Origin: a virus
IMG/VR virus record: IMGVR_UViG_3300020057_000029
Location: 64,001-128,000 of that record
DNA length: 64,000 nt
Strand: one strand, 5' to 3'
Under the pieces are notes generated by a model. That model was not told where the DNA came from. It saw only the letters and a program-made list of their open reading frames with translations, and searched no databases. Position 1 is the first letter of the stretch; the number at the start of each line of letters is the position of its first letter. This document shows, one piece after another, positions 38,185 through 63,171 of the stretch. Position numbers and translations under genes: made by a program.

Positions 38185-39618
38185 ATGAGCAAAAGGACAG
38201 ACATACAGATAATTAGACAGTATGTAGAGAAAAGAGGGTTTTCTCTATTGTCCAATTCTTACAAAAACAGAAAATCTGATCTTGATCTGCACTGCCCTGT
38301 TCATGGTAATTTTACCTCTACTTATAGCAACATCATACGGACCAGTATATGTCCCAAATGCGGCTATAGTTTTGGTGGTAACAAACAATCTCTGTCTCTG
38401 GAACACGTCAGGTTAGAAATAGTCAAAATGGGCTATGTCCCATTGTTTGACTCCTACAAAAGGGCCAAAGACAAACTGGAGATATCGTGTTCTTCCCATG
38501 GCAAATTCTTTGCAAGCTACGACGGCTTAAAACAAGGCAAAAGATGTCCAAAATGCAGTCTTATTTCTAAGACAAAAAACAACAGACTTGACATAGAAGA
38601 AGTAAAAAATAGAATAACAAAAGCTGGCTATTTGCCAAAATTTGAGTCTTACAGCGATTCTCAGTCGCTATTAAGCGTTGTGTGCCCTGTTCATGGCCCT
38701 TTCAAGGCGTCTTTAGAGAGATTTATGTATGGATACGGATGTCAAAAATGCTCTAAGGGAAGATCCAAATCTCAAGACGAGATGTTTGATTTTATACACA
38801 GTCTGAATGCAGACACTAAAGAAAATGTCAGAGACGTTATCGGCCCACTAGAGCTAGATGTCTATACGCCGTGCCTGAATTTGGCCATAGAATACTGTGG
38901 ACTTTATTGGCATTCCGATCTGTATAAAAATAGAAATTATCATTTCGACAAAATGACAATGACCAATACTGTAAATATTCGTCTCATAACAATTTTTGAA
39001 GATGAGTGGTTAGAACGCAAAGATCAGGTAAAAGGATTTCTTCGATCTGTATTGAAAAAGAATAATAGAAAAATCTTTGCTAGAAAAACAAACCTTAAGC
39101 AAGTAGGAAAAGCAGAAGCTTGTAAGTTTCTTGAAGAAAATCATATTCAAGGGTCTTGCGGTCTAGAAGTCGCTTTTGGCTTGTACTGTAGGGATGAGCT
39201 TGTAGGCGTAGTCACTGGCAACAGGCATCACAGGAATATTAAAGCAAATCAGCTAGTGCTCAACAGACTAGCCTTTAAATCAGGCATTAGCGTGACCGGT
39301 GGTTCTTCCAAGCTTTTGAGAGCCCTAATGGAATACTCTAAAAACAATGATTATTCCAAAATAGTTTCTTGGTCTGATAACAGATGGTCCGAAGGCAATG
39401 TTTATAAAAAGCTAGGTTTTGAGTTAGAAGAAGAGTTAGCGCCAGACTATAGCTACGTGAAAAAATCAAAAAGAGTGTCTAAGCAGTCTATGACCAAGAA
39501 CAAGTTGATTGAGCGGGGTGCCATTGGTAATACTGAAAGAGAAATGGCTATCAATCTAGGCTATGGCAGAATTTGGGATTGTGGAAAGAAAAGGTGGGCT
39601 TTAAAGTTAAAAAGATGA
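38185..39618 (+). mobile_element. Free-standing homing endonuclease (CxxHG Zn-ribbon repeats, Vsr-like/PD-(D/E)xK core, GNAT-like C-domain)
   Basis: 3 x C..HG...C.KC; ELDVY...AIEYCGLYWH; IFEDEW; RIWDCGKKRW. Confidence 0.75.
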
Positions 39619-43250: not shown

Positions 43251-45122
43251 ATGGACAATGACAACAAAACTCCAGACCAAATAGAAGCTGCAATTGTTGC
43301 TTTGCAATCTGCTGTAGCCTCAGTCGATTCTAAAAAGAAGATGTTGTTTACCGTTTCTGATACAGAAGAGGCTACCCTTGCCAAGGGTGGCTATGAAAGC
43401 TCTAGCCCCATATCGCCCTTGCTTGCTGCTATTAAAAGTGCTTCTGGTTCTGCAAGCAGGAAAGCCCCTCGTTTAGCTTTTACTGAAAACCCAGCACCTT
43501 CTGACAATTATCTTGGTCTGTTCAAATCCAAGCGCAGGCTGGTGCCTGATGAGATTTTAAAACAAATTCGCGTAACCGATCACTTGATCGCTGCTATCCT
43601 ACGTGCTCGCGGCAACATGATGAGCCTATTTGGCCATCCTCGTAAAAACAGATTTGATATAGGAATGGAAATCGCTATTAAACAGGAGTTTGAAAAAGTC
43701 TTTACTCCAGAGCAATTGGCCAAAGTACGAATGCGTATCAAGAATCTTGAGGCAGTACTCGTCAACTGTGGACACACAGAAGGTCTTGAACAACAAGATA
43801 GGACCACATTAGCTGATTTTATAGATATTCAAGCTCGCAATGGATTGACATTTGGTCGTTTTGCTACTGAGATTATTTATGATCGCGGAGAAGAACCAGG
43901 CTCTGATGGTCGTTTTCCATTTTTCCGGTTTCGCGCTCTAGACGTTGCTACTATTTATCGCGCTGTTCGCAAGGGTGAAATGCTAGGAAACACACTGCGC
44001 CTAACCGCAATCAAAGCTCTTCAGTCCTTGACTGGTGAGAACTTTAAGATTGACTTTGACAGGCTTCAAGAAGACGAATATGCTTGGCTACAGGTAATTG
44101 AGGGAACCCCTCGTCAAGCCTTTACGCATGATGAGATGATTGTTTACAATCTTTACGATTCTACCGATATCGAACACAATGGCTATCCAGTATCGCCAAT
44201 GGATACTGCGATCAGTTCTATTACTACCCATATTTCTATCGATGCCTATAAAAAGCTCTATTTTCAAAACGGTCGTGCCTCTAAGGGTATGCTTGTGATC
44301 AAATCTGATGAAGTAGATCAGGCTACACTTGACAACATGAAGCTTCAGTTCAACGCTTCTATTAATAGCGTAAGTAATTCTTTCCGTACTCCTATTTTTG
44401 GTATTGGAAAAGAAGACCAAGTTGACTGGTTGGCGATGAATGAGGGCGCTCGTGACGACGACTTCCAGTTCATGTACGATCAGATTGCTCGTAACATTCT
44501 TTCTGCTTTCAATATGTCTCCTGACGAGCTTCCTGGCTACTCACACCTTTCTCGTGGTACTAACTCGCAGACCCTATCTGAATCAAATAACGAATTCAAG
44601 CTTACCGCTGCTCGTGATACTGGTCTACGTCCTTTAATCTTGAAGTTCCAGACCTTCTTTAACGAAAAGCTTCTTCCTTTGATTGACCCTTTGCTTGCAA
44701 AAATTGCAGAGGTTAGGTTCGCTGGCATTGATGCTCAGTCCAAAGAGCAAGAGTCTACTCGATTACAGCAAGACATGGCTGTACACATGAATTACGACCA
44801 GACCTTAAAAGAAGTAGATAAAGAGCCTATCGGACACACTCTTGGTGGCGAATTCCCTTTTAATGAGCGTTGGCAGATTATTATAGACAAGTACATGAAC
44901 GTTTCTGAGCTTAGGGCTCAGTTCTTCAAAGATCCTACTGCTTACGTAGATCCCTTGCTACAATATAAAAGAGATCCCTTTTTTCTACAGAATCTACAAT
45001 TGTTAGCCCAAGTAAACCCACTTGCCCTAAAAGCTTTTTATGCGACTAAGCCTTTTGCCCTAGAATTCTTAAAAATGAACATCGAAGACGCCTTAGAAGA
45101 AGACGAAAACGTAGGAACCTAA
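43251..45122 (+). CDS. Portal protein
   Basis: GYPVSPM, YFQNG...GML, DDFQF...IARNILSAFNMSPDEL, GLRPL; follows terL. Confidence 0.85.
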   Translation: MDNDNKTPDQIEAAIVALQSAVASVDSKKKMLFTVSDTEEATLAKGGYESSSPISPLLAAIKSASGSASRKAPRLAFTENPAPSDNYLGLFKSKRRLVPDEILKQIRVTDHLIAAILRARGNMMSLFGHPRKNRFDIGMEIAIKQEFEKVFTPEQLAKVRMRIKNLEAVLVNCGHTEGLEQQDRTTLADFIDIQARNGLTFGRFATEIIYDRGEEPGSDGRFPFFRFRALDVATIYRAVRKGEMLGNTLRLTAIKALQSLTGENFKIDFDRLQEDEYAWLQVIEGTPRQAFTHDEMIVYNLYDSTDIEHNGYPVSPMDTAISSITTHISIDAYKKLYFQNGRASKGMLVIKSDEVDQATLDNMKLQFNASINSVSNSFRTPIFGIGKEDQVDWLAMNEGARDDDFQFMYDQIARNILSAFNMSPDELPGYSHLSRGTNSQTLSESNNEFKLTAARDTGLRPLILKFQTFFNEKLLPLIDPLLAKIAEVRFAGIDAQSKEQESTRLQQDMAVHMNYDQTLKEVDKEPIGHTLGGEFPFNERWQIIIDKYMNVSELRAQFFKDPTAYVDPLLQYKRDPFFLQNLQLLAQVNPLALKAFYATKPFALEFLKMNIEDALEEDENVGT

Positions 45123-50111: not shown

Positions 50112-50741
50112 ATGAAAATAGACCAGAAAATGATTGAAAAAGCTATTGAAGCGGTATTGAAGTTTTTCAACAAAGAGATTGCTAAGCCAGTACAGCCAAT
50201 CGTAGCGACCCCAGTTCCAAAGGTTGAAGTGGTAAGCGTGACACTTGATGATCTGGGTCCACTTTTGCACCAAGTTGACTGGGCTAATCCGCAATCTAAG
50301 ATTTCTAAGTATTTTACCGTAAACGAGGCTATCCAGTTACGTGAATGGAAGCGTTTGGCCAATGAATCAGATGGTTTAGACGACAAGGTTAAAGAGAATC
50401 TATACAGTATTTTTCAAAAGATGGATACAATCCGCGAATTCCTAGGAAAACCTGTGTACATTCGTTCCGCTTATCGCCCAGGTGAATACAACGTAGCAAT
50501 TGGTGGGGCTAAACGCTCTGCTCATATTGCTGATGCTGAATATGCTGCGGTTGACTTCTGGTGCGATATGGATAGTGATGGCGACAAGGATGGTGAGGAT
50601 TGTGATCTCATCAAGGTAGCCCTAATGAACAAGCTTGAGGGATGGGGTCTTCGTATGGAGGATAACGGCAAAGGTGCTAGATGGGTTCATCTAGACAACA
50701 AACCTGTGCCTCCAGGTGGCAACAGATTTTTTAAACCTTAA
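50112..50741 (+). CDS. Peptidase M15 (Zn D-Ala-D-Ala/L-Ala-D-Glu type), probable endolysin
   Basis: SAYRP..YN..IGGA..SAH, AVDF, WVHLD. Confidence 0.85.
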   Translation: MKIDQKMIEKAIEAVLKFFNKEIAKPVQPIVATPVPKVEVVSVTLDDLGPLLHQVDWANPQSKISKYFTVNEAIQLREWKRLANESDGLDDKVKENLYSIFQKMDTIREFLGKPVYIRSAYRPGEYNVAIGGAKRSAHIADAEYAAVDFWCDMDSDGDKDGEDCDLIKVALMNKLEGWGLRMEDNGKGARWVHLDNKPVPPGGNRFFKP

Positions 50742-54200: not shown

Positions 54201-55586
54201 ATGATCGAACAACTTCAGTCACTTATGAAAGCTCTTGAGGCCGGTAGTTACAACGCCGCCCCAGGTCAGCTTGCGCAAGGTGCTGCTTTAATGGTGGAAG
54301 ACCTTTCCCCAGTAATGCAAAACGTAACGTTTGACGACAGCCATATCAAACTTCAAAAAATGCTAACTAGCAAAGATGTAAAAGCTACAATGCATCAATT
54401 CAACCGTCAACTTGACTATGGAATCTTCGGTGGTTCTGCTCAATTTGAAGGCGGCATTGGTGAAGAAGATACCTCGAACTACGTTCGTGCTATCGTTCCC
54501 ATGGCCTATTACAGCACGACTCGTCGTGTTTCTGTTGCTGCTAACCTCATCGGTGCTTTCGACGGCGTAAAAGCTGAAGACCGTGCTGCTGCTGACGCTG
54601 CAATGAAACTTGCTGGCGATATCGAATTCGACTGCTTCCGTGGTCAATCCGATTTCTCAAACGCTGGTGTGTTTGACGGTAACCCTCTCGCTGTAGCGAA
54701 AGTGCCCAATATGATTGGACTTGACCAACAAGTTCGTCAGTCGGACGCTCAACAAAATACGCAAGATCTTATGTTTGCTGAGTACGGCTCAGACCAAACT
54801 GTAGTACTCTCTGCTGGTGGCGCTCTAACCCAGTCCATCATCGAAGATTCCGCAGTTCGTAGCTCTATGAACATGGGTAATGCTGATAAGCTCGTTCTCG
54901 ATCCTATCAGTCTCTCTGCATATAACAAGATCGCCCACGCTAAAGAACGTATCATGCTCGCTGGCTCTGCTCAAGAAGCTTCCGGCGCTCACTTACGTAC
55001 TCAGTGGACCTCTTCGGCTATCGTATCACTTGAAGCTTCGCGCTTCTTGAGTGGTAAGACTCGTCCTGCTCGCGCTCGCGCATCAGCTCTCGCTGGTCCC
55101 GCTATCGCTGCTGCTGACGCTGGTGCCGCTGGTTCGCTCTTGGCCGCTGCTGCATACGTATACTATGCTACTGCTGTTAATGAACGTGGCGAAAGTACTC
55201 CTGGTGCATCTAGTTCTGTAACCCCTGCTCTTGCTGGTAACAAGGTCAATGTGACCATTACTGCAGTAGCTGGAGCTAAGTACTACAACTTGTATCGATC
55301 TGCCGCTGGTGGAAATGCAGCTTCTGCAAAATTCATTGGCAAGATTGCACAAGGTTCTGGCAACCCTGTATTCGCGGATCTTGGTAACCGTTCCCCTGGT
55401 TCTGTTACTGGTTTCTTGATTCAAGGTAACACCATGGGTCTTGCTCAGTTGGCTCCATATAGCAAATTGAAATTGGCTGTTAGTGACCTCTCACTTCCTG
55501 AGGCACACTTCAGATTCCTTTCTCTTGCTGTATACCAACCTCGCAAAAACGTTCTGATCGAGAACATTGATGGTCAACTTAGCTAA
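54201..55586 (+). CDS. Major capsid protein with an Ig/FN3-like insertion
   Basis: LMKALEAG, AALMVEDL, IEF..F.G, GL..Q; insertion YVYYATAVNERGES...YNLYRS resembles SPO1/Twort-type MCPs; strong terminator follows. Confidence 0.85.
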   Translation: MIEQLQSLMKALEAGSYNAAPGQLAQGAALMVEDLSPVMQNVTFDDSHIKLQKMLTSKDVKATMHQFNRQLDYGIFGGSAQFEGGIGEEDTSNYVRAIVPMAYYSTTRRVSVAANLIGAFDGVKAEDRAAADAAMKLAGDIEFDCFRGQSDFSNAGVFDGNPLAVAKVPNMIGLDQQVRQSDAQQNTQDLMFAEYGSDQTVVLSAGGALTQSIIEDSAVRSSMNMGNADKLVLDPISLSAYNKIAHAKERIMLAGSAQEASGAHLRTQWTSSAIVSLEASRFLSGKTRPARARASALAGPAIAAADAGAAGSLLAAAAYVYYATAVNERGESTPGASSSVTPALAGNKVNVTITAVAGAKYYNLYRSAAGGNAASAKFIGKIAQGSGNPVFADLGNRSPGSVTGFLIQGNTMGLAQLAPYSKLKLAVSDLSLPEAHFRFLSLAVYQPRKNVLIENIDGQLS

Positions 55587-55745: not shown

Positions 55746-57449
55746 ATGAAGGATAAAATATCAGAACTGTATAAAAAAGGTGTGAAAACATCAGATATAG
55801 CCATGGTTCTAAGGAAAACGCCTCAAAGAATTAATCAAGTGCTGATAGAGCTTGGCTTAAAGCAAAAAACGTTTGACTATTCGCCAAAAATAACTGCTAT
55901 CATTGCTGAAAGCATTCTTGCTTTTAATAGAGATGGTCTGACCGTAACTGAAATATCAAAAAGGGTTGATCTAACAACCACTGGAATCAGAAATTTTCTT
56001 AAAAAACGTAGTATTTCAACAAACGCATCCAAAGAAGACAGGTCTAGGCCTTGTGTTGTTTGTAAATTAGTGTTCACTCCGAAACACTCAGATGGGGTGA
56101 AAAAAAACAAATACAAGACTTGCTCTGTCGAATGTCGCTCTAAGCACGCTAGTGAATACAGAACGAAATATACAAAAGATGATATCGATAAGGTTTTAGA
56201 GCTAAAAAAGGCCAATACTGCCAATGATGAGATTTGCCTGGCAACAGGGGTAAATATAAATAAGATCAAAGAGGTGATCAAAGAAAATGCCTTGTTTTTG
56301 GACCCAAAAGTGGCTCAAAAGAATGCTTATGAAGCTAAGCTAAAAAAGAATACTCGTTCTATGGAAGAGATGCGAGCTTATTACGGAAAAATAGCCGTAT
56401 CAGAAGAAAGTCTTGAAAAAACAAAAACAATTCTTTTGGAAAGGGGTTTTGAATATATAGATGGTTTTGAGGGCAAAAGCAATCCTTTTAAAATCAAATG
56501 TCTAGTCTGCAATAATATCAGAACTACACATAGGATAAACAATGTGGTCAAAAACGCCTGTATGTTCTGTTCTGGATGTAAAAAAACTTCCAAAGCCGAA
56601 ATAGAAATTGGGGCATGGGTAAACTCTTTAAAGATAAAGGCTGAAAAATTCAAGTTTGAATACCGAAAAGATGGTGGCGAAATAGATGTTTTTGTTCCCC
56701 TTGTAAAGGTGGGAATAGAATACTGTGGTCTTTATTGGCATAACGAAAATAGCCCAACCTCAAGAGGGGTGGATTATCATTTCAACAAAATGAAAAAGGC
56801 TAACAAAGAAGGTATTCGCCTAATAACCATTTTCGAAGACGAATGGCTCAATAAAAAAGATCAAATTAAAGGATTTTTACGATCTGTTCTTAATAAAAAT
56901 GAAATAAGGCTTTTTGCCAGAAAAACAGATTTGAGAGAGGTGCCTAAAAAAGAGGCCTCTCTTTTCTTAGAGGAAAATCATATCCAGGGTTCTTCTCAAA
57001 TCGAATCGGCTTTTGGCCTTTATTACAACGAAGAGCTTGTTGGTATTGTAACTGGCAACAAACATCACAGACAGGGAATGAAAAATCAATTCATACTGAA
57101 TCGATTGGCCTTTAAAACAAACGTAAGTGTGGCTGGTGGTTCGTCTCGGCTTCTTAAGGCGCTAATTGGTTATGCTAAAAAGAATGGCTATTTAAAACTA
57201 GTCTCGTGGTCAGACAATAGGTGGTCCGAAGGTAATGTTTACGAAAAACTAGGGTTTGTATTGGAAGAAACCCTTGGCCCAGACTATTCTTACGTAGTTG
57301 GCCAAAAAAGAATCTCCAAGCAATCTTGTACCAAGGAAAACTTGCTCAAAAAAGGAGCCATTGGTAACACAGAAAAAGAAATGGCCCTCAGTTTAGGATA
57401 TAGCAGAATATGGGATTGTGGCAAAAAACGCTGGACCTTCGCCTTGTAG
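55746..57449 (+). mobile_element. Free-standing homing endonuclease, paralogue of 38185-39618 with an HTH-rich N-terminus
   Basis: EIDVF...GIEYCGLYWH, IFEDEW, RIWDCGKKRW; C-half closely similar to ORF 38185. Confidence 0.75.
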
Positions 57450-59329: not shown

Positions 59330-59719
59330 ATGTCTAGACTTTCTGTTAAAATCATCAAAAATTATTACAACAACAATATGTTTGCATATGCGAATGAATG
59401 GATCATTCGTGCTAATGAGCCAAATCTCCTTTATTTTCAGCTAGTTGACTTAGACAATGATAGCCTGCGCTATATGCCCTCTGTCCCAACTCTGGTATAT
59501 ATGAAGCTTCTTTCGATTGATAGCGCCGATGTCATCATGGCACCTGCAAGCCTGGCTGACCCGCTAGACACCTCTATTTGGAAAATTAGCTTAGGTGCCA
59601 GCCAGATTCCCAAAAGCGGCAACGTGGCCTTCCAGATCTCTGAAAATGGCGTTATTCGCACGTTCAGCATCCTAAACGGGATCAGCGTAGAGTATCCTGG
59701 AAATGATGGGTCGTGCTAA
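59330..59719 (+). CDS. Probable structural protein
   Basis: GGAG RBS; candidate late promoter upstream. Confidence 0.55.
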   Translation: MSRLSVKIIKNYYNNNMFAYANEWIIRANEPNLLYFQLVDLDNDSLRYMPSVPTLVYMKLLSIDSADVIMAPASLADPLDTSIWKISLGASQIPKSGNVAFQISENGVIRTFSILNGISVEYPGNDGSC

Positions 59720-60547
59720 ATGTTTTTCCCTCAAAGTAAATCTCCACAAACCGCAATATACCCAGTTCACTGCAAAGAGGCTTCTGGATTATTGCGCCGT
59801 TGCGAACCCTTTTTGACTCCAACCCAATTGAAGAATCGGTTTTTGCTGGGCATTCCCTTAAAATTCGCCAACGACGATGTCTTAACGGACGAGATCCTAA
59901 AAGACCGTATTCATTTGGCAATGAACGAAGTAGAGCTTCTTTTGAATATTACCATTACCAGAGAAGCCTTTCAAGACAAGCTTCCTTTTGACTATCAGCT
60001 CTACAAAGCGTATATTAATCTAGTGTCAGAAAAAGGACCAATTATTAGTATTGAAAGTCTTGCTATCACAAGCGCTGACTTCAATAATATTTTCACAATT
60101 CCACCTGATTGGATCGAAACTTCAAATTTTTCAAAACGTCTTGTTAACGTGATCCCTCTATTGGCTGCCTATGGCGTAAACACCGTTCAGGGTGCAGTCG
60201 GAAATGCCGGTATAGCTTTTTTGGCCGTGATGGGTGGTTTGAGCTGGGTTCCTGCTTATTGGCAAATCAATTATACCGCAGGTCTTTCTAACAAAGAAGG
60301 TCAGGTGCCAGTACCAGTAAACGAGCTTATTGGGGTAGTAGCTGCTCTAAACACCCTTAGTCTTATCGCGCCTTCAAATATCTATAATAGCCAATCGCTA
60401 TCTCAAGATGGCATCTCACAGTCTTCGTCTGGTCTTGGACCTCGTTTGTACGAACTGAGAATTTCTGAACTTGAGAGAAAAAAAGAAGAGCTAACCAGAA
60501 AGCTCAAGGCTATCTTTTTCAGCAGGATAATATTCGGGAACATATAA
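59720..60547 (+). CDS. Head-tail connector/neck protein
   Basis: AMNEVELLLNITI, P.YWQINYTAG, SQSLSQDGISQS; position after the capsid genes. Confidence 0.65.
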   Translation: MFFPQSKSPQTAIYPVHCKEASGLLRRCEPFLTPTQLKNRFLLGIPLKFANDDVLTDEILKDRIHLAMNEVELLLNITITREAFQDKLPFDYQLYKAYINLVSEKGPIISIESLAITSADFNNIFTIPPDWIETSNFSKRLVNVIPLLAAYGVNTVQGAVGNAGIAFLAVMGGLSWVPAYWQINYTAGLSNKEGQVPVPVNELIGVVAALNTLSLIAPSNIYNSQSLSQDGISQSSSGLGPRLYELRISELERKKEELTRKLKAIFFSRIIFGNI

Positions 60548-61593
60548 TGGGTTTAAGTAAATTTTTGCTACAATCTATGTCAGAGCACAAGGATAAGGTC
60601 AAAGGGCCTCATTTCCTGTTTTCTGCAGAGAACCCTCGTTTTCCGCAAAAAACTACGCTAAGCCACGAAGACGTTGTAAAACATCTAAAAGGTGCGGGTT
60701 TTGATGCGCACGAAGTGAATGGTCATTATGGATCTCCCGAGCGCAGCATTGCTGTTTATGGCGTGAGTAAGGTTCAGGGAGAAGAGCTTCACGACATGGC
60801 TTCCCGTTTAGGTCAAGATAGCTCTATTTATTCCAATGGTAAACAGCACGAAATGCGCTTTCATCATGGAGAAAATGCTGGCAAAGCCCATTATGGAGAA
60901 GGCACTAAGTGGCATTTGCAAAAGCCAGCAGACTATTTTACCACCCTTCCTGGCGGACATCACCATTTTACCCATGATTTCAAATTTGACACCTTACACC
61001 CAGCGGGCCAGTTACACAATGTTCACGAGATGCTTGGTAAGCAAGTTTCTGCAGAGCACAAAACCGCTCAAGAAGCTGTTGCTTCGCCTTTAAACCAAAA
61101 ACTTGAGAGTGATCATGACACCAATATGAAAGGTATCAAGGATGGTCTTAAGGACGACATAAAGAAAAACGAACAAGAGCGTATAAAACTTGTTCATTTT
61201 TCCTCTCAAGGCGATCTAAAACATATTGACCCTAATTTCAAACAAACTGGGGTAGACGCTGGAAAAAAGGGCAGAGATACTTTTCATCCTCACTCATTCT
61301 ATTACGTAGAGGGCACTGAACCTGAACAGATCGTTGTGAGTCAAAGCCGTCACAAATATAAGACCAGCATAAACCCTGCTGAAAAACCTGTATACGATCT
61401 CGGTCATGATCCAAAAGGTGTGGTCGATGAAGCAATTAAGGAAAACCAGGGCGTTTTAAACATGGACATGGTTCATGAAAAATTAAAAGATGCTGGGTTT
61501 CACGGATTTAGAAACTCAAAACACCCTAGTCTATCTAATGTGGTCGGAATGTATCATCCTTTGGCAGTGGAGCATCATGAACAAATCAGATAA
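60547..61593 (+). CDS. Two-domain protein: SAM-lyase-like N-domain plus ART-like C-domain
   Basis: LFSAEN...GHYGSPERSI...LGQDSSI...YFT; then IKK|N and LVHFS...LKDAGFHG. Confidence 0.55.
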   Translation: MGLSKFLLQSMSEHKDKVKGPHFLFSAENPRFPQKTTLSHEDVVKHLKGAGFDAHEVNGHYGSPERSIAVYGVSKVQGEELHDMASRLGQDSSIYSNGKQHEMRFHHGENAGKAHYGEGTKWHLQKPADYFTTLPGGHHHFTHDFKFDTLHPAGQLHNVHEMLGKQVSAEHKTAQEAVASPLNQKLESDHDTNMKGIKDGLKDDIKKNEQERIKLVHFSSQGDLKHIDPNFKQTGVDAGKKGRDTFHPHSFYYVEGTEPEQIVVSQSRHKYKTSINPAEKPVYDLGHDPKGVVDEAIKENQGVLNMDMVHEKLKDAGFHGFRNSKHPSLSNVVGMYHPLAVEHHEQIR

Positions 61594-62665
61594 AACAGAA
61601 AATTTGGGTCAGGGCGTACACGAAGGGTATCAGCAACGCGCTAAACAGGGCGGCGATGTTCTGTTCCATGTAAAGCTTAAGGGTAGAACTTATCTTACGA
61701 ACGACATACCTCTTCACATGTCCTTGAAGGTGTTTTCCAACAAGGATGAAATGGACCTAGCTGAAATTAAAGCCAAGGTTAAAGAGTTTGACATCAAGGC
61801 TCCAGATCCTAAAAATCTTAAATTTAAAACAACTATTTTTACCTCAGAAAATGATGGTAAAGAATATTTCATGCTTTTGTGTGAAGGTTGTCCTGATAAT
61901 TATGAAAAATTCTACCATTCTTTTGGCAACAAAGGAACTCGTTATAAAAATTTCATGTCCCATGTGACCATTGACAAGCTATTGTACGATGCGATCAATG
62001 AAGACGGCGTAAAAGCTGAAGAGATCGAATTTAGCCCTCTCACTGTTGAGCATGGTGCTGACAATACTGTGCATATTTTTGAAGACAGTCTAGAAAAGTC
62101 TGAAGAGCTTCTTGAAAAAGGCAGTATGAAGCATTTAGCTTCTGCTTTGATTATGAGCACGGCCCTTGCTGGCGGATCTCACACTGCTCATGCTCCTAAA
62201 ACACCATCTGCAATCCATCAAGAACCTGAATACACACCAGCAAGAATGCTTGCTAGTATTTCTGATGTAGAAAGCTCTGGCGGAAAAGATACTAAACACG
62301 AAGCTCTTCCTGAGGGCGGGATACATCGTGGTGAAAAAGCTTATGGAAAATACGGACTAACACCTGTTGTTATACGCGAAACAATACATATGCACAAAGA
62401 CCTTGCGACAAAACATAAAAAAGCCTTAAACCTGCGTGGACAAGACATGTCTAACTATATGCAAGACAACCCTGAATTAGAAGACACGATTGCTCAGAAG
62501 CATTTACAAAGACTTGAACATCATTTTGGTCCAAAACCAGACGTTCTGGGCTATGCGTGGTTACAGGGAATTACTGGGACAAACAAGGCTCTGAAAACAA
62601 AAGAAGATATTAAAAGTCATTGGCATGTCAAAAAAATTAGAGATGCCTATCTAAGGGGTAAGTAA
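61577..62665 (+). CDS. 2H phosphoesterase (Acb1-like) plus lytic-transglycosylase-like polyprotein
   Basis: GGAG RBS before ATG 61577; LHMSL and SHVTI 82 aa apart; ISDVESSGG, AYGKYGLTP, YAWLQG. Confidence 0.6.
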   Translation: MNKSDKTENLGQGVHEGYQQRAKQGGDVLFHVKLKGRTYLTNDIPLHMSLKVFSNKDEMDLAEIKAKVKEFDIKAPDPKNLKFKTTIFTSENDGKEYFMLLCEGCPDNYEKFYHSFGNKGTRYKNFMSHVTIDKLLYDAINEDGVKAEEIEFSPLTVEHGADNTVHIFEDSLEKSEELLEKGSMKHLASALIMSTALAGGSHTAHAPKTPSAIHQEPEYTPARMLASISDVESSGGKDTKHEALPEGGIHRGEKAYGKYGLTPVVIRETIHMHKDLATKHKKALNLRGQDMSNYMQDNPELEDTIAQKHLQRLEHHFGPKPDVLGYAWLQGITGTNKALKTKEDIKSHWHVKKIRDAYLRGK

Positions 62666-63171
62666 TGGATATTAAAGCTGATGAAATATTGAGCGTAGAA
62701 GAAGCTGGAATGCTGGACAAACATCCTGTAAAAATGCTTCGCACAAAAGGTGGGTTTTGGATTGCCGTAGGTAGGCCAAAAGGAAAGCACAAGGATGAGG
62801 CGATTGGGGCAGGCAGTCACCCTGCTATCGTAAGGTACAACCTCGAAAAACAGTATCCAGCCTTTGAACCTGCCCTTATGAAGAGCGAAATGTTCAATGA
62901 CTCTGCTATCGTAGATAAACATTCCCATTTTCTTTCTGATGAATTGCGTAAATCTGGTTACGATGTTTACTCCGTTCAAGACGGCAAAGAAATAGAATTT
63001 CACGTAACCAAGCTCAATGCCTATGTTGCTACCGTAAAAGGCCAGCTACAGTCAGATGCGTTGGTTTTTAAAGTATTAGAAATGCCTAAAGAATTTACCA
63101 GAGCTATTGCTGGAGCGGCAACCGAAAAAGCCCTATCTTGTAATACGCCCAAAATCCGCATCGAGAAATAA
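62665..63171 (+). CDS. Hypothetical head-region protein with an internal LMK|SE site
   Basis: Coupled to the upstream gene. Confidence 0.6.
   Translation: MDIKADEILSVEEAGMLDKHPVKMLRTKGGFWIAVGRPKGKHKDEAIGAGSHPAIVRYNLEKQYPAFEPALMKSEMFNDSAIVDKHSHFLSDELRKSGYDVYSVQDGKEIEFHVTKLNAYVATVKGQLQSDALVFKVLEMPKEFTRAIAGAATEKALSCNTPKIRIEK

Follow-up and report, generated by a model that had tools for sequence, protein, structure and literature searches.

The DNA analysed here (the window) comprises 64,000 nucleotides (nt), bases 64001-128000 of the 155,223-bp viral sequence IMGVR_UViG_3300020057_000029, and, as judged from its sequence, belongs to an uncultured myovirus related to Myxococcus phage Mx1. Three consecutive open reading frames (ORF1-ORF3; Table 1) are flanked by a neck gene and the tail module of this phage. 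They are composed of unrelated enzyme-like modules and small domains, and the linkers between these carry a short peptide that also recurs in the scaffold and in the long C-terminal extension of the prohead protease. The reading favoured here, with moderate confidence, is that ORF1-ORF3 encode polyvalent capsid cargo that would be cut by the prohead protease at the motif-bearing linkers.

Modules of ORF1, ORF2 and ORF3

The stop codon of the neck gene and the start codon of ORF1 share one base, as do those of ORF2 and ORF3, and ORF1 and ORF2 overlap by 17 nt; because of these overlaps, the neck gene and ORF1-ORF3 are probably translated as one late unit. For ORF2, the listed start at 61490 was rejected in favour of the ATG given in Table 1, which is almost certainly correct since GGAG is found 5 nt before it and a protein of 98% identity (P0001) starts with MNKSD.

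The first module of ORF1 (residues ~20-148) has the fold of S-adenosylmethionine (SAM) lyases. In the structural model m1735865e602a, with a predicted local distance difference test (pLDDT) score of 80, it is followed by a disordered linker (residues ~150-209), which falls below 50 at residues 193-209 and ends in IKK/NE (the slash marks the presumed cut), and by a module with the ADP-ribosyltransferase (ART) fold (residues 210-348). Using the structure aligner VIA-align, the first module was aligned with 7ock_L at a Z score of 9.1 (root-mean-square deviation 4.0, 126 residues aligned) and with the phage SAM lyase 6zm9_A at 5.9, and Foldseek matched it to the T3 SAM lyase 8bb1_E with a probability of 1.0 and an E-value of 2.7e-3. 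The S-AdoMet lyase family PF23780, which holds the T3 SAMase and Svi3-3, is matched by 5 of 23 ORF1 orthologues, and scores of 30.1 and 30.8, above the cut-off of 28, were obtained for homologues with ~60% identity to the first module; ORF1 of the window itself gave no PF23780 match at E<=0.1. Nothing was found when the ORF1 family was compared with the T3 SAMase alone by hhalign, a PDB profile search of ORF1 gave no match, and a tblastn search of ORF1 against phages brought up only a different gene of Mx1, through its SAM-lyase-like module. Many polar residues of the module are invariant (alignment A1), among them E65, S67 and Q90, which are catalytic candidates only.

The second module of ORF1 was aligned by VIA-align with more than 20 chains of the ART superfamily at Z scores of 5-7, and most of the alignments covering the domain belong to this superfamily. 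MbcT (Z 7.0), ParT (6.2), 9k3a_B (6.2), diphtheria toxin (5.8), NatT, PARPs, Tpt1 and Arr are among these chains. H217, Y253 and E260 are invariant and are candidates only for a catalytic triad (H-Y-E or R-S-E). A comparison with the ART-PolyVal insert of the homologue P0131 by hhalign was not significant. Because hhalign gave no significant result, the SAM-lyase and ART assignments are based on the folds and on the Pfam matches of the orthologues.

In ORF2, MNK/SD (residues 1-5, with the initiator Met) is followed by a 2H phosphoesterase module (residues ~25-165), the motifs LEK/SE and LEK/GS, an Ala/Gly-rich segment, a Pro/Ala-rich spacer and an SLT module (residues ~218-362). The 2H motifs H47-M-S and H129-V-T, both with an invariant His, align with the two motifs of the LigT-type proteins PH0099 (1vdx, E 0.045) and YjcG (2d4g, E 0.6), which are weak matches, and some ORF2 homologues are named 2'-5' RNA ligase by the Joint Genome Institute. 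No chain of Acb1 was among the PDB profile matches of ORF2 at E<=10, the nearest solved relatives being LigT-type. Within the sequence VESSGG of the SLT half, E232 is invariant and S233 nearly so; PF01464 is matched by 8 of 35 ORF2 orthologues (best E 6.3e-7), ORF2 of the window itself scoring below the threshold. A tblastn search of ORF2 against phages found nothing. The Ala/Gly-rich segment (residues 184-206) is conserved and reaches a maximum Kyte-Doolittle hydropathy of 0.83 over 19 residues, a weak hydrophobicity that does not make for a confident membrane helix.

ORF3 is built of an N-terminal domain (residues 1-69) and a C-terminal domain (residues 82-168), joined by a linker with LMK/SE (residues 71-75). 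Its model has a pLDDT of 92.6, and residues 71-80 are the sole weak block. In the ORF3 family of 39 sequences, with a mean identity of 41%, no more than 7 columns are invariant, K73 and S74 among them, while the x position of the motif varies and the residues just after it are rich in insertions and deletions. For the C-terminal domain, VIA-align gave a partial GNAT-like arrangement (Z 6-7.9 over ~70-88 residues), an ambiguous match because the domain has only half the size of a GNAT. Foldseek returned only low-TM noise for ORF3, and no function could be assigned to either domain. A weak sequence similarity between ORF3 and the Ig-like repeats of giant surface proteins was not taken as homology.

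The linker motif in head proteins and homologues

The motif was used in a strict form, [LMIFV]xKS[DE], and in a wider form, hydrophobic-x-Lys-Ser/Ala-Glu/Asp ([SA] at P1'). The strict form occurs 24 times in the proteome of the 155-kb genome, 13 of these copies being in the protease and the scaffold. With [SA] at P1', 8 copies were counted in the scaffold and 7 in the protease, compared with 0.24 and 0.41 expected from shuffling. The protease gene encodes an N-terminal protease of ~172 amino acids (aa) and a C-terminal extension of 500 aa in which 6-7 of the copies are located; the first two, FFK/SE at 173 and LLK/SD at 190, directly follow the protease domain. This gene, which adjoins the scaffold and capsid genes, encodes a prohead serine protease of the S77/S78 clan. 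Its product is 36% identical over ~180 aa to the 'putative prohead protease' of Mx1, and its protease domain weakly matches PHROG 1028 (head maturation protease). An Atlas search led to Peptidase_S77/S78 clusters (TM 0.66-0.75 over residues 1-175 to S78 clusters; 13 feature matches were S77), and H41 and S120 are invariant (alignment A6). For the protease domain no Pfam match and no match in the PDB profile search were obtained. Protease residues ~368-404 resemble the N-terminal arm of the capsid protein (MEKAMTAGSG...GALTDGAAL compared with LMKALEAGSY...GQLAQGAAL), as is also the case in the Mx1 protease; they may mimic the capsid arm or serve in docking.

In every relative, Mx1 included, the scaffold has 4-9 copies of the motif. 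The N-terminus of the capsid protein, MIEQLQSLMK/ALEAG, is motif-like; its L-x-K-A site is kept in 11 relatives, and Mx1 has L-R-K-A-M. By analogy with T4, HK97, phiKZ and SPN3US (PMC10052503), an autocleavage site, a diced scaffold and a trimmed capsid N-terminus would together represent the recognition pattern of the prohead protease. Cleavage after Lys (Lys/Ser) is favoured because the capsid site L-M-K-A-L has no acidic residue; the near-constant Ser-Glu would also fit a cut after Glu, as in T4 or phiKZ.

Within the cargo genes of the window alone the signal is modest, with 1-2 sites per protein compared with 0.2-0.3 expected, and ORF2 and ORF3 together have 3 copies compared with 0.21 expected by shuffling ([SA] at P1'). 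The case for the motif rests on its conservation in homologues. Six modules, namely A (SAM lyase), B (ART fold), C (2H), D (SLT) and E and F (the two ORF3 domains), were mapped onto ~276 homologues. In this set, in which motif counts are not independent since the sequences are related, the motif density was 9.8 per 1000 aa outside the module cores and 0.42 inside them (23-fold), the non-core segments held 356 copies compared with 33.5 +/- 5.6 after shuffling (~10-fold), and of the 274 junctions that follow a recognised module on its C-terminal side, 198 had the motif. Despite the relatedness of the sequences, this is a large effect.

The individual sites of the window were compared with those of homologues. 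IKKNE (ORF1 residues 205-209) lies immediately before the second domain, in the segment with pLDDT<50, and is a relaxed form of the motif, not significant alone (1 copy compared with 0.28 expected); it is column-aligned with LEKSE, IDKSE and LNKSD of orthologues. The columns of MNKSD coincide with those of FKKSE in homologues that have the SAM-lyase module fused ahead of 2H-SLT, and also with those of L-x-K-A/S-E (LLKAE, LHKSE) at the end of an N-terminal peptide of 7-30 residues in other homologues; it looks like what is left of such a joint. It is the only N-terminal site of ORF2, and many homologues have L-x-K-A-E at residues 7-35. LEKSE (ORF2 residues 172-176) and LEKGS (residues 179-183), the latter a relaxed form with K181 invariant in the family, separate the 2H half from the SLT half; insertions and deletions are frequent in this stretch, and F/L/M-x-K-S-E is found there in the majority of 60 homologues. 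Near N-termini (residues 7-35) the prevailing form is L-x-K-A-E, and at internal joints x-K-S-E (relatives L004, L009, L030, L032 and L036, and all scaffolds); the form with Ala might be part of a signal for targeting or of a propeptide.

An earlier note on this DNA had listed five copies of the motif in ORF1-ORF3 and had equated them with the peptide that saturates scaffold and protease tail; all five were located where it had placed them, and the peptide is the same. Its description of the genes as strings of unrelated enzyme-like domains was borne out, as the SAM-lyase fold, ART fold, 2H and SLT were each matched by fold or motif. The statement that the motifs mark domain boundaries holds for IKK/NE, LEK/SE, LEK/GS and LMK/SE, which lie in linkers, but MNK/SD is at the start codon. 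A position of the motifs inside folded domains had been named beforehand as evidence against cleavage, and the sites of ORF1 and ORF3 are in low-confidence linkers of the models. The genes had also been placed among neck and head genes; a neck gene is indeed directly upstream, but the tail module follows downstream and the head genes are ~5 kb upstream.

The variable slot and its genome context

The neck gene and the ORF3 homologue are constant in all relatives, and the content between them varies from 0 to 2098 aa. The neck/tail-joining gene forms the upstream edge of this slot, and ORF3, which is found in all relatives including Mx1, where the shorter homologue keeps LSKSE, forms the conserved downstream edge. 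The slot is empty in L002 and L003, and the variable content is therefore dispensable. It is occupied by 2H-SLT only in L004, L005, L008 and L020, by a 2H form of 245 aa in L006 and L007, and by multi-module proteins of 440-974 aa in L012, L017, L035-L037 and L041. In Mx1, it contains a protein of 1479 aa (GNAT, ART-PolyVal with 2.8e-16, NUDIX) and a kinase-like protein of 619 aa, and in the phage studied here ORF1 and ORF2. The variable content of the slot thus appears to turn over fast, as expected of conflict genes.

The earlier note had suggested checking whether relatives swap domains at the motif, and in relatives modules (GNAT, NUDIX, VTC, ART-PolyVal and kinase among them) are indeed exchanged, reordered, fused and split at it. 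Among the architectures of the ~276 homologues are A-B, B-A, A-C-D, A-x-B, A-x-C-D, x-C-D, C-E-F and A-D, x denoting a stretch without an assigned module. In P0139, for example, the order is A, LGKSE153, GNAT, FGKSE263, x, VGKSE415 and B, and the 974-aa protein of L036 consists of 2H, MKKSE, x, MKKSE, VTC, MGKAE and LEKGE, NUDIX, MFKNE and SLT.

Copies of homing-endonuclease-like genes and a GIY-YIG gene break up the slot in the relatives L007, L023, L030, L032 and L037. A second motif-rich slot is present just upstream of the tail sheath gene, outside the window (genome C1 133825-134331, corresponding to window coordinates 69825-70331; L044 7326-7832). Here it encodes a 168-aa protein with LKKAD15, LKKSE22, LKKSE75 and MSKGE96, and in relatives proteins of 200-380 aa with 2-5 motifs each; the 559-aa protein of Mx1 that precedes the sheath includes a SAM-lyase-like module. 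Moreover, a conserved protein on the tail-module side (equivalent to window 64970-66103; L044 2471-3604), with homologues of ~310 aa, has the motif near residue 25 and at 240-345 in many relatives (LSKSE25 and MVKSE242 in L030). Further genes between neck and sheath may accordingly encode protease substrates.

The capsid protein has 54% identity to that of Mx1, a 170-kb phage, and 80-90% to those of several metagenomic contigs of 150-170 kb; a megablast search of the region against deposited phages gave no close relative. The features of the late region are compiled in Table 1. The acidic low-complexity protein encoded after the portal gene, with one strict motif, is probably another head-internal protease substrate. 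The two homing-endonuclease-like genes are paralogous with their C-terminal halves in common, and one of them separates the capsid gene from the metallophosphoesterase gene. A 590-aa ORF that directly precedes the terminase region appears by eye to be a GroEL/HSP60-type chaperonin-like gene.

Table 1. Features of the late region and of ORF1-ORF3 (window coordinates)
Feature	Position	Strand	Remarks
Chaperonin-like ORF, 590 aa	36397-38169	+	GroEL/HSP60-type by eye
Homing-endonuclease-like gene	38185-39618	+	paralogue of 55746-57449
Portal	43251-45122		first in late region
Acidic low-complexity protein, 259 aa	45124-45903	+	after portal; one strict motif, TMGK/SEV
MuF-like protein			after 259-aa low-complexity head protein
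Peptidase_M15 gene	50112-50741	+	PF08291, 8e-12; adjoins protease gene; candidate endolysin
Prohead protease, 672 aa	50766-52784	-	S77/S78 clan
152-aa protein			listed between protease and scaffold genes
Scaffold, 242 aa	53441-54169	+	8 motif copies
Major capsid protein	54201-55586	+	PHROG 752, 4e-40
Homing-endonuclease-like gene	55746-57449	+	paralogue of 38185-39618
Metallophosphoesterase and kinase-like genes			listed, with the preceding gene, between capsid and neck genes
Two neck genes	59330-60547
Neck/tail-joining gene	59720-60547	+	PHROG 772; directly before slot in every relative
ORF1, 348 aa	60547-61593	+	slot content
SAM-lyase-fold module	60604-60990		ORF1
IKKNE	61159-61173		ORF1
ART-fold module	61174-61590		ORF1
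ORF2, 362 aa	61577-62665	+	slot content
MNKSD	61577-61591		ORF2
LEKSE	62090-62104		ORF2
LEKGS	62111-62125		ORF2
Ala/Gly-rich segment	62126-62194		ORF2
ORF3, 168 aa	62665-63171	+	downstream slot edge
LMKSE	62875-62889		ORF3
Tail module			after ORF1-ORF3; sheath ~7 kb further on

Proposed processing, alternatives and known systems

According to the favoured reading, ORF1-ORF3 would be made late, together with the neck genes, and their products would enter the prohead. There, the S77/S78-type prohead protease of the phage would cut them at the hydrophobic-x-Lys-Ser/Ala-Glu/Asp linkers, the same peptide at which the scaffold would be diced, the protease freed from its long tail and the capsid N-terminus trimmed. 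The predicted products are a SAM lyase-like enzyme, an ART-fold enzyme, a 2H phosphoesterase, an SLT hydrolase and two small ORF3 fragments, and the freed SLT cell-wall hydrolase would have a newly exposed, weakly hydrophobic N-terminus. These products would remain in the head, exit with the DNA and could act before any phage gene expression, possibly against host defences such as restriction-modification, BREX or CBASS. Packaging is proposed since prohead proteases act only inside the prohead in known systems, and injection because of the precedents of T4 Alt/Ip and SPN3US (PMC5512222, PMC12373910, PMC10052503). Processing by the prohead protease would be the simplest explanation of a strongly selected peptide that the three canonical protease substrates have as well and that lies in flexible joints where modules swap, and an anti-restriction-type SAM lyase would be of little use in a late operon unless it were brought into the next cell. 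As every module ends in the same cut signal, modules could be fused, split, reordered and exchanged without loss of function, which would explain the variable slot. A more far-reaching and tentative proposal is that the Lys-type site acts as a universal joint, so that any modules flanked by it would automatically be loaded, cut and injected and would form an exchangeable pre-expression counter-defence kit. The kit of this phage would then be a packaged SAM lyase, an ART-fold enzyme utilising nicotinamide adenine dinucleotide and a 2H phosphodiesterase, with ORF3 perhaps as a fixed slot element, adaptor or plug.

Several observations weigh against packaging and cleavage of ORF1-ORF3. No virion data for Mx1 were found, and Pfam and PHROG searches of ORF1-ORF3 gave no usable match, leaving these three proteins without a Pfam family. 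The genes adjoin tail genes, not head genes. ORF1 and ORF3 have no N-terminal motif of the targeting type that would account for their entry into the prohead. The joint right after the first domain of ORF1 has lost the motif (MLGKQV compared with FxKSE/LGKSE in relatives), and there is no motif between ART-PolyVal and NUDIX in the giant slot protein of Mx1. The Z scores of the ART-fold module are middling, though consistent, and no catalytic Glu was confirmed. In a co-variation test, relatives with LAASE at the joint between 2H and SLT, in which the Lys is simply lost, were found to keep K-S-E scaffolds, which adds no support. Finally, linkers tend to be rich in Lys, Ser and Glu in any case, and the homologues cannot be counted as independent samples.

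The last of these points leads to the explanation that the recurrence of the motif is an artefact of composition and common ancestry, the K/S/E-rich disordered linkers having descended from a few ancestors and having no function. This is very improbable in view of the 33.5 copies in shuffled linker segments against 356 observed, of K and S being invariant in ORF3 while the flanks and x vary at a mean identity of 41%, and of the presence of the motif at joints between different, unrelated module pairs. It is also unlikely that the proteins are unpackaged late enzymes of the cytoplasm or envelope, with the peptide as a linker or interaction signal and the C-terminal half of ORF2 as a membrane-tethered lysis enzyme similar to signal-anchor-release endolysins. 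A weakly hydrophobic Ala/Gly/Ser-rich segment directly before SLT, as in such endolysins, and the adjoining tail genes would agree with this. But this segment lies within the protein and the Met that follows LEKGS lacks conservation, so that no internal start is available, and the separate Peptidase_M15 gene is a candidate endolysin. Furthermore, the peptide is found at the end of the protease domain, throughout the scaffold and at the capsid N-terminus, which is the classic substrate pattern of a prohead protease, and fusions of 2H with ORF3 and of the SAM-lyase module with 2H-SLT put all modules in one compartment.

A further alternative accepts packaging and cutting and assigns them to entry and assembly instead of counter-defence: the SLT domain would open the wall, the hydrophobic peptide would enter the membrane, ORF3 and the fragments would be structural or DNA-organising, and the enzyme-like modules would be partly inactive. 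SLT domains are established in ejection proteins of the T7 gp16 type, ORF3 is a core gene in every relative, unlike the variable modules, and folds without an enzyme assignment, its C-terminal domain being only partially GNAT-like, and the ART-fold module has no verified catalytic Glu. Against these points stand the invariance of the 2H histidines, of the SLT Glu and of many polar residues of the SAM-lyase-like module, the empty slots of L002 and L003, by which the variable content is dispensable for assembly, and the slot repertoire of relatives (ART-PolyVal, NUDIX, GNAT, kinase, VTC), which corresponds to conflict effectors (PMC5512222). A role mainly in entry or assembly was judged improbable.

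The idea of packaged and processed cargo is not wholly new, since polyvalent proteins (Iyer, Burroughs, Anand, de Souza and Aravind, 2017; PMC5512222) and the processing of T4 Alt and internal proteins (IP) cover most of it. In the parts of PMC5512222, of the jumbo-phage survey PMC7824862 and of the SPN3US work that were accessible, a motif at each joint, module exchange at this motif and a SAM lyase module were not described; subscription literature was thinly covered, and this is not proof of absence. If the favoured reading is true, injected proteins could be recognised from sequence by a simple rule, the phage's own scaffold/protease motif between folded modules, and the prediction of packaged, processed polyvalent proteins made in 2017 would become directly testable; Mx1 can be cultured, and the motif is present in its slot proteins too. 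Moreover, classic early-gene counter-defences such as SAM lyase would be deliverable as virion cargo, and the reading of host range and defence-evasion repertoires from genomes would change.

Polyvalent proteins combine disparate enzyme domains in one chain, are encoded among virion genes and are predicted to be packaged and injected; their repertoire includes ART-PolyVal, 2H phosphoesterase, GNAT, NUDIX-type and peptidoglycan hydrolase domains (PMC5512222). Likewise, SAM-lyase and ART folds are combined in ORF1 and 2H and SLT in ORF2, within virion-morphogenesis genes, and the slots of relatives hold ART-PolyVal, GNAT, NUDIX, VTC and kinase domains, whereas the proteins of this phage match at the level of fold and motif only. 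The processing of polyvalent proteins is ascribed there mainly to embedded zincin-like peptidases or to a fused C-terminal assemblin-like peptidase (PMC5512222). In contrast, the proteins described here are small, with two modules each, and the motif at their joints is that of a prohead protease encoded by a gene of its own.

T4 Alt, an ADP-ribosyltransferase, and Ip1-3, which block type IV restriction, are packaged and injected (PMC5512222, PMC12373910, PMC9026906). Alt and IPI-III are made late, packaged into the head and trimmed by the prohead protease gp21, as is proposed for ORF1-ORF3. In T4, however, one short N-terminal targeting peptide ending in L/I-x-E is removed, whereas the sites described here are internal, between modules and Lys-based, with no N-terminal site except the vestigial MNK/SD, and there is no sequence homology to T4 proteins. 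The SPN3US protease is described as processing head and ejection proteins at A-x-E (PMC10052503), and for phiKZ, 201phi2-1 and SPN3US long propeptides cut at several sites and a protease that trims its own C-terminus are reported (PMC10052503, PMC5694885). There, the removed propeptides are mostly lost from the head, and multi-enzyme release or module swapping at the sites is not described in the text that was read.

Phage P1 builds its Dar anti-restriction proteins into the head and delivers them with the DNA, and DdrB is proteolytically processed (PMC5512222, PMC12810830); the Dar proteins are loaded hierarchically via Hdf/DarA, with no junction motif in common and no homology to ORF1-ORF3. 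The pre-ejectosome of cyanophage A4 (PDB 9k3a) has a capsid-internal ART-like domain (PMC12002296), and the second module of ORF1 aligns with 9k3a_B (Z 6.2), so that a likeness to ejectosome proteins (SLT in T7 gp16, ART-like in A4) can be seen. Ejectosome proteins, however, are podovirus core proteins that build a trans-envelope channel, whereas the phage described here is a myovirus with small separable modules.

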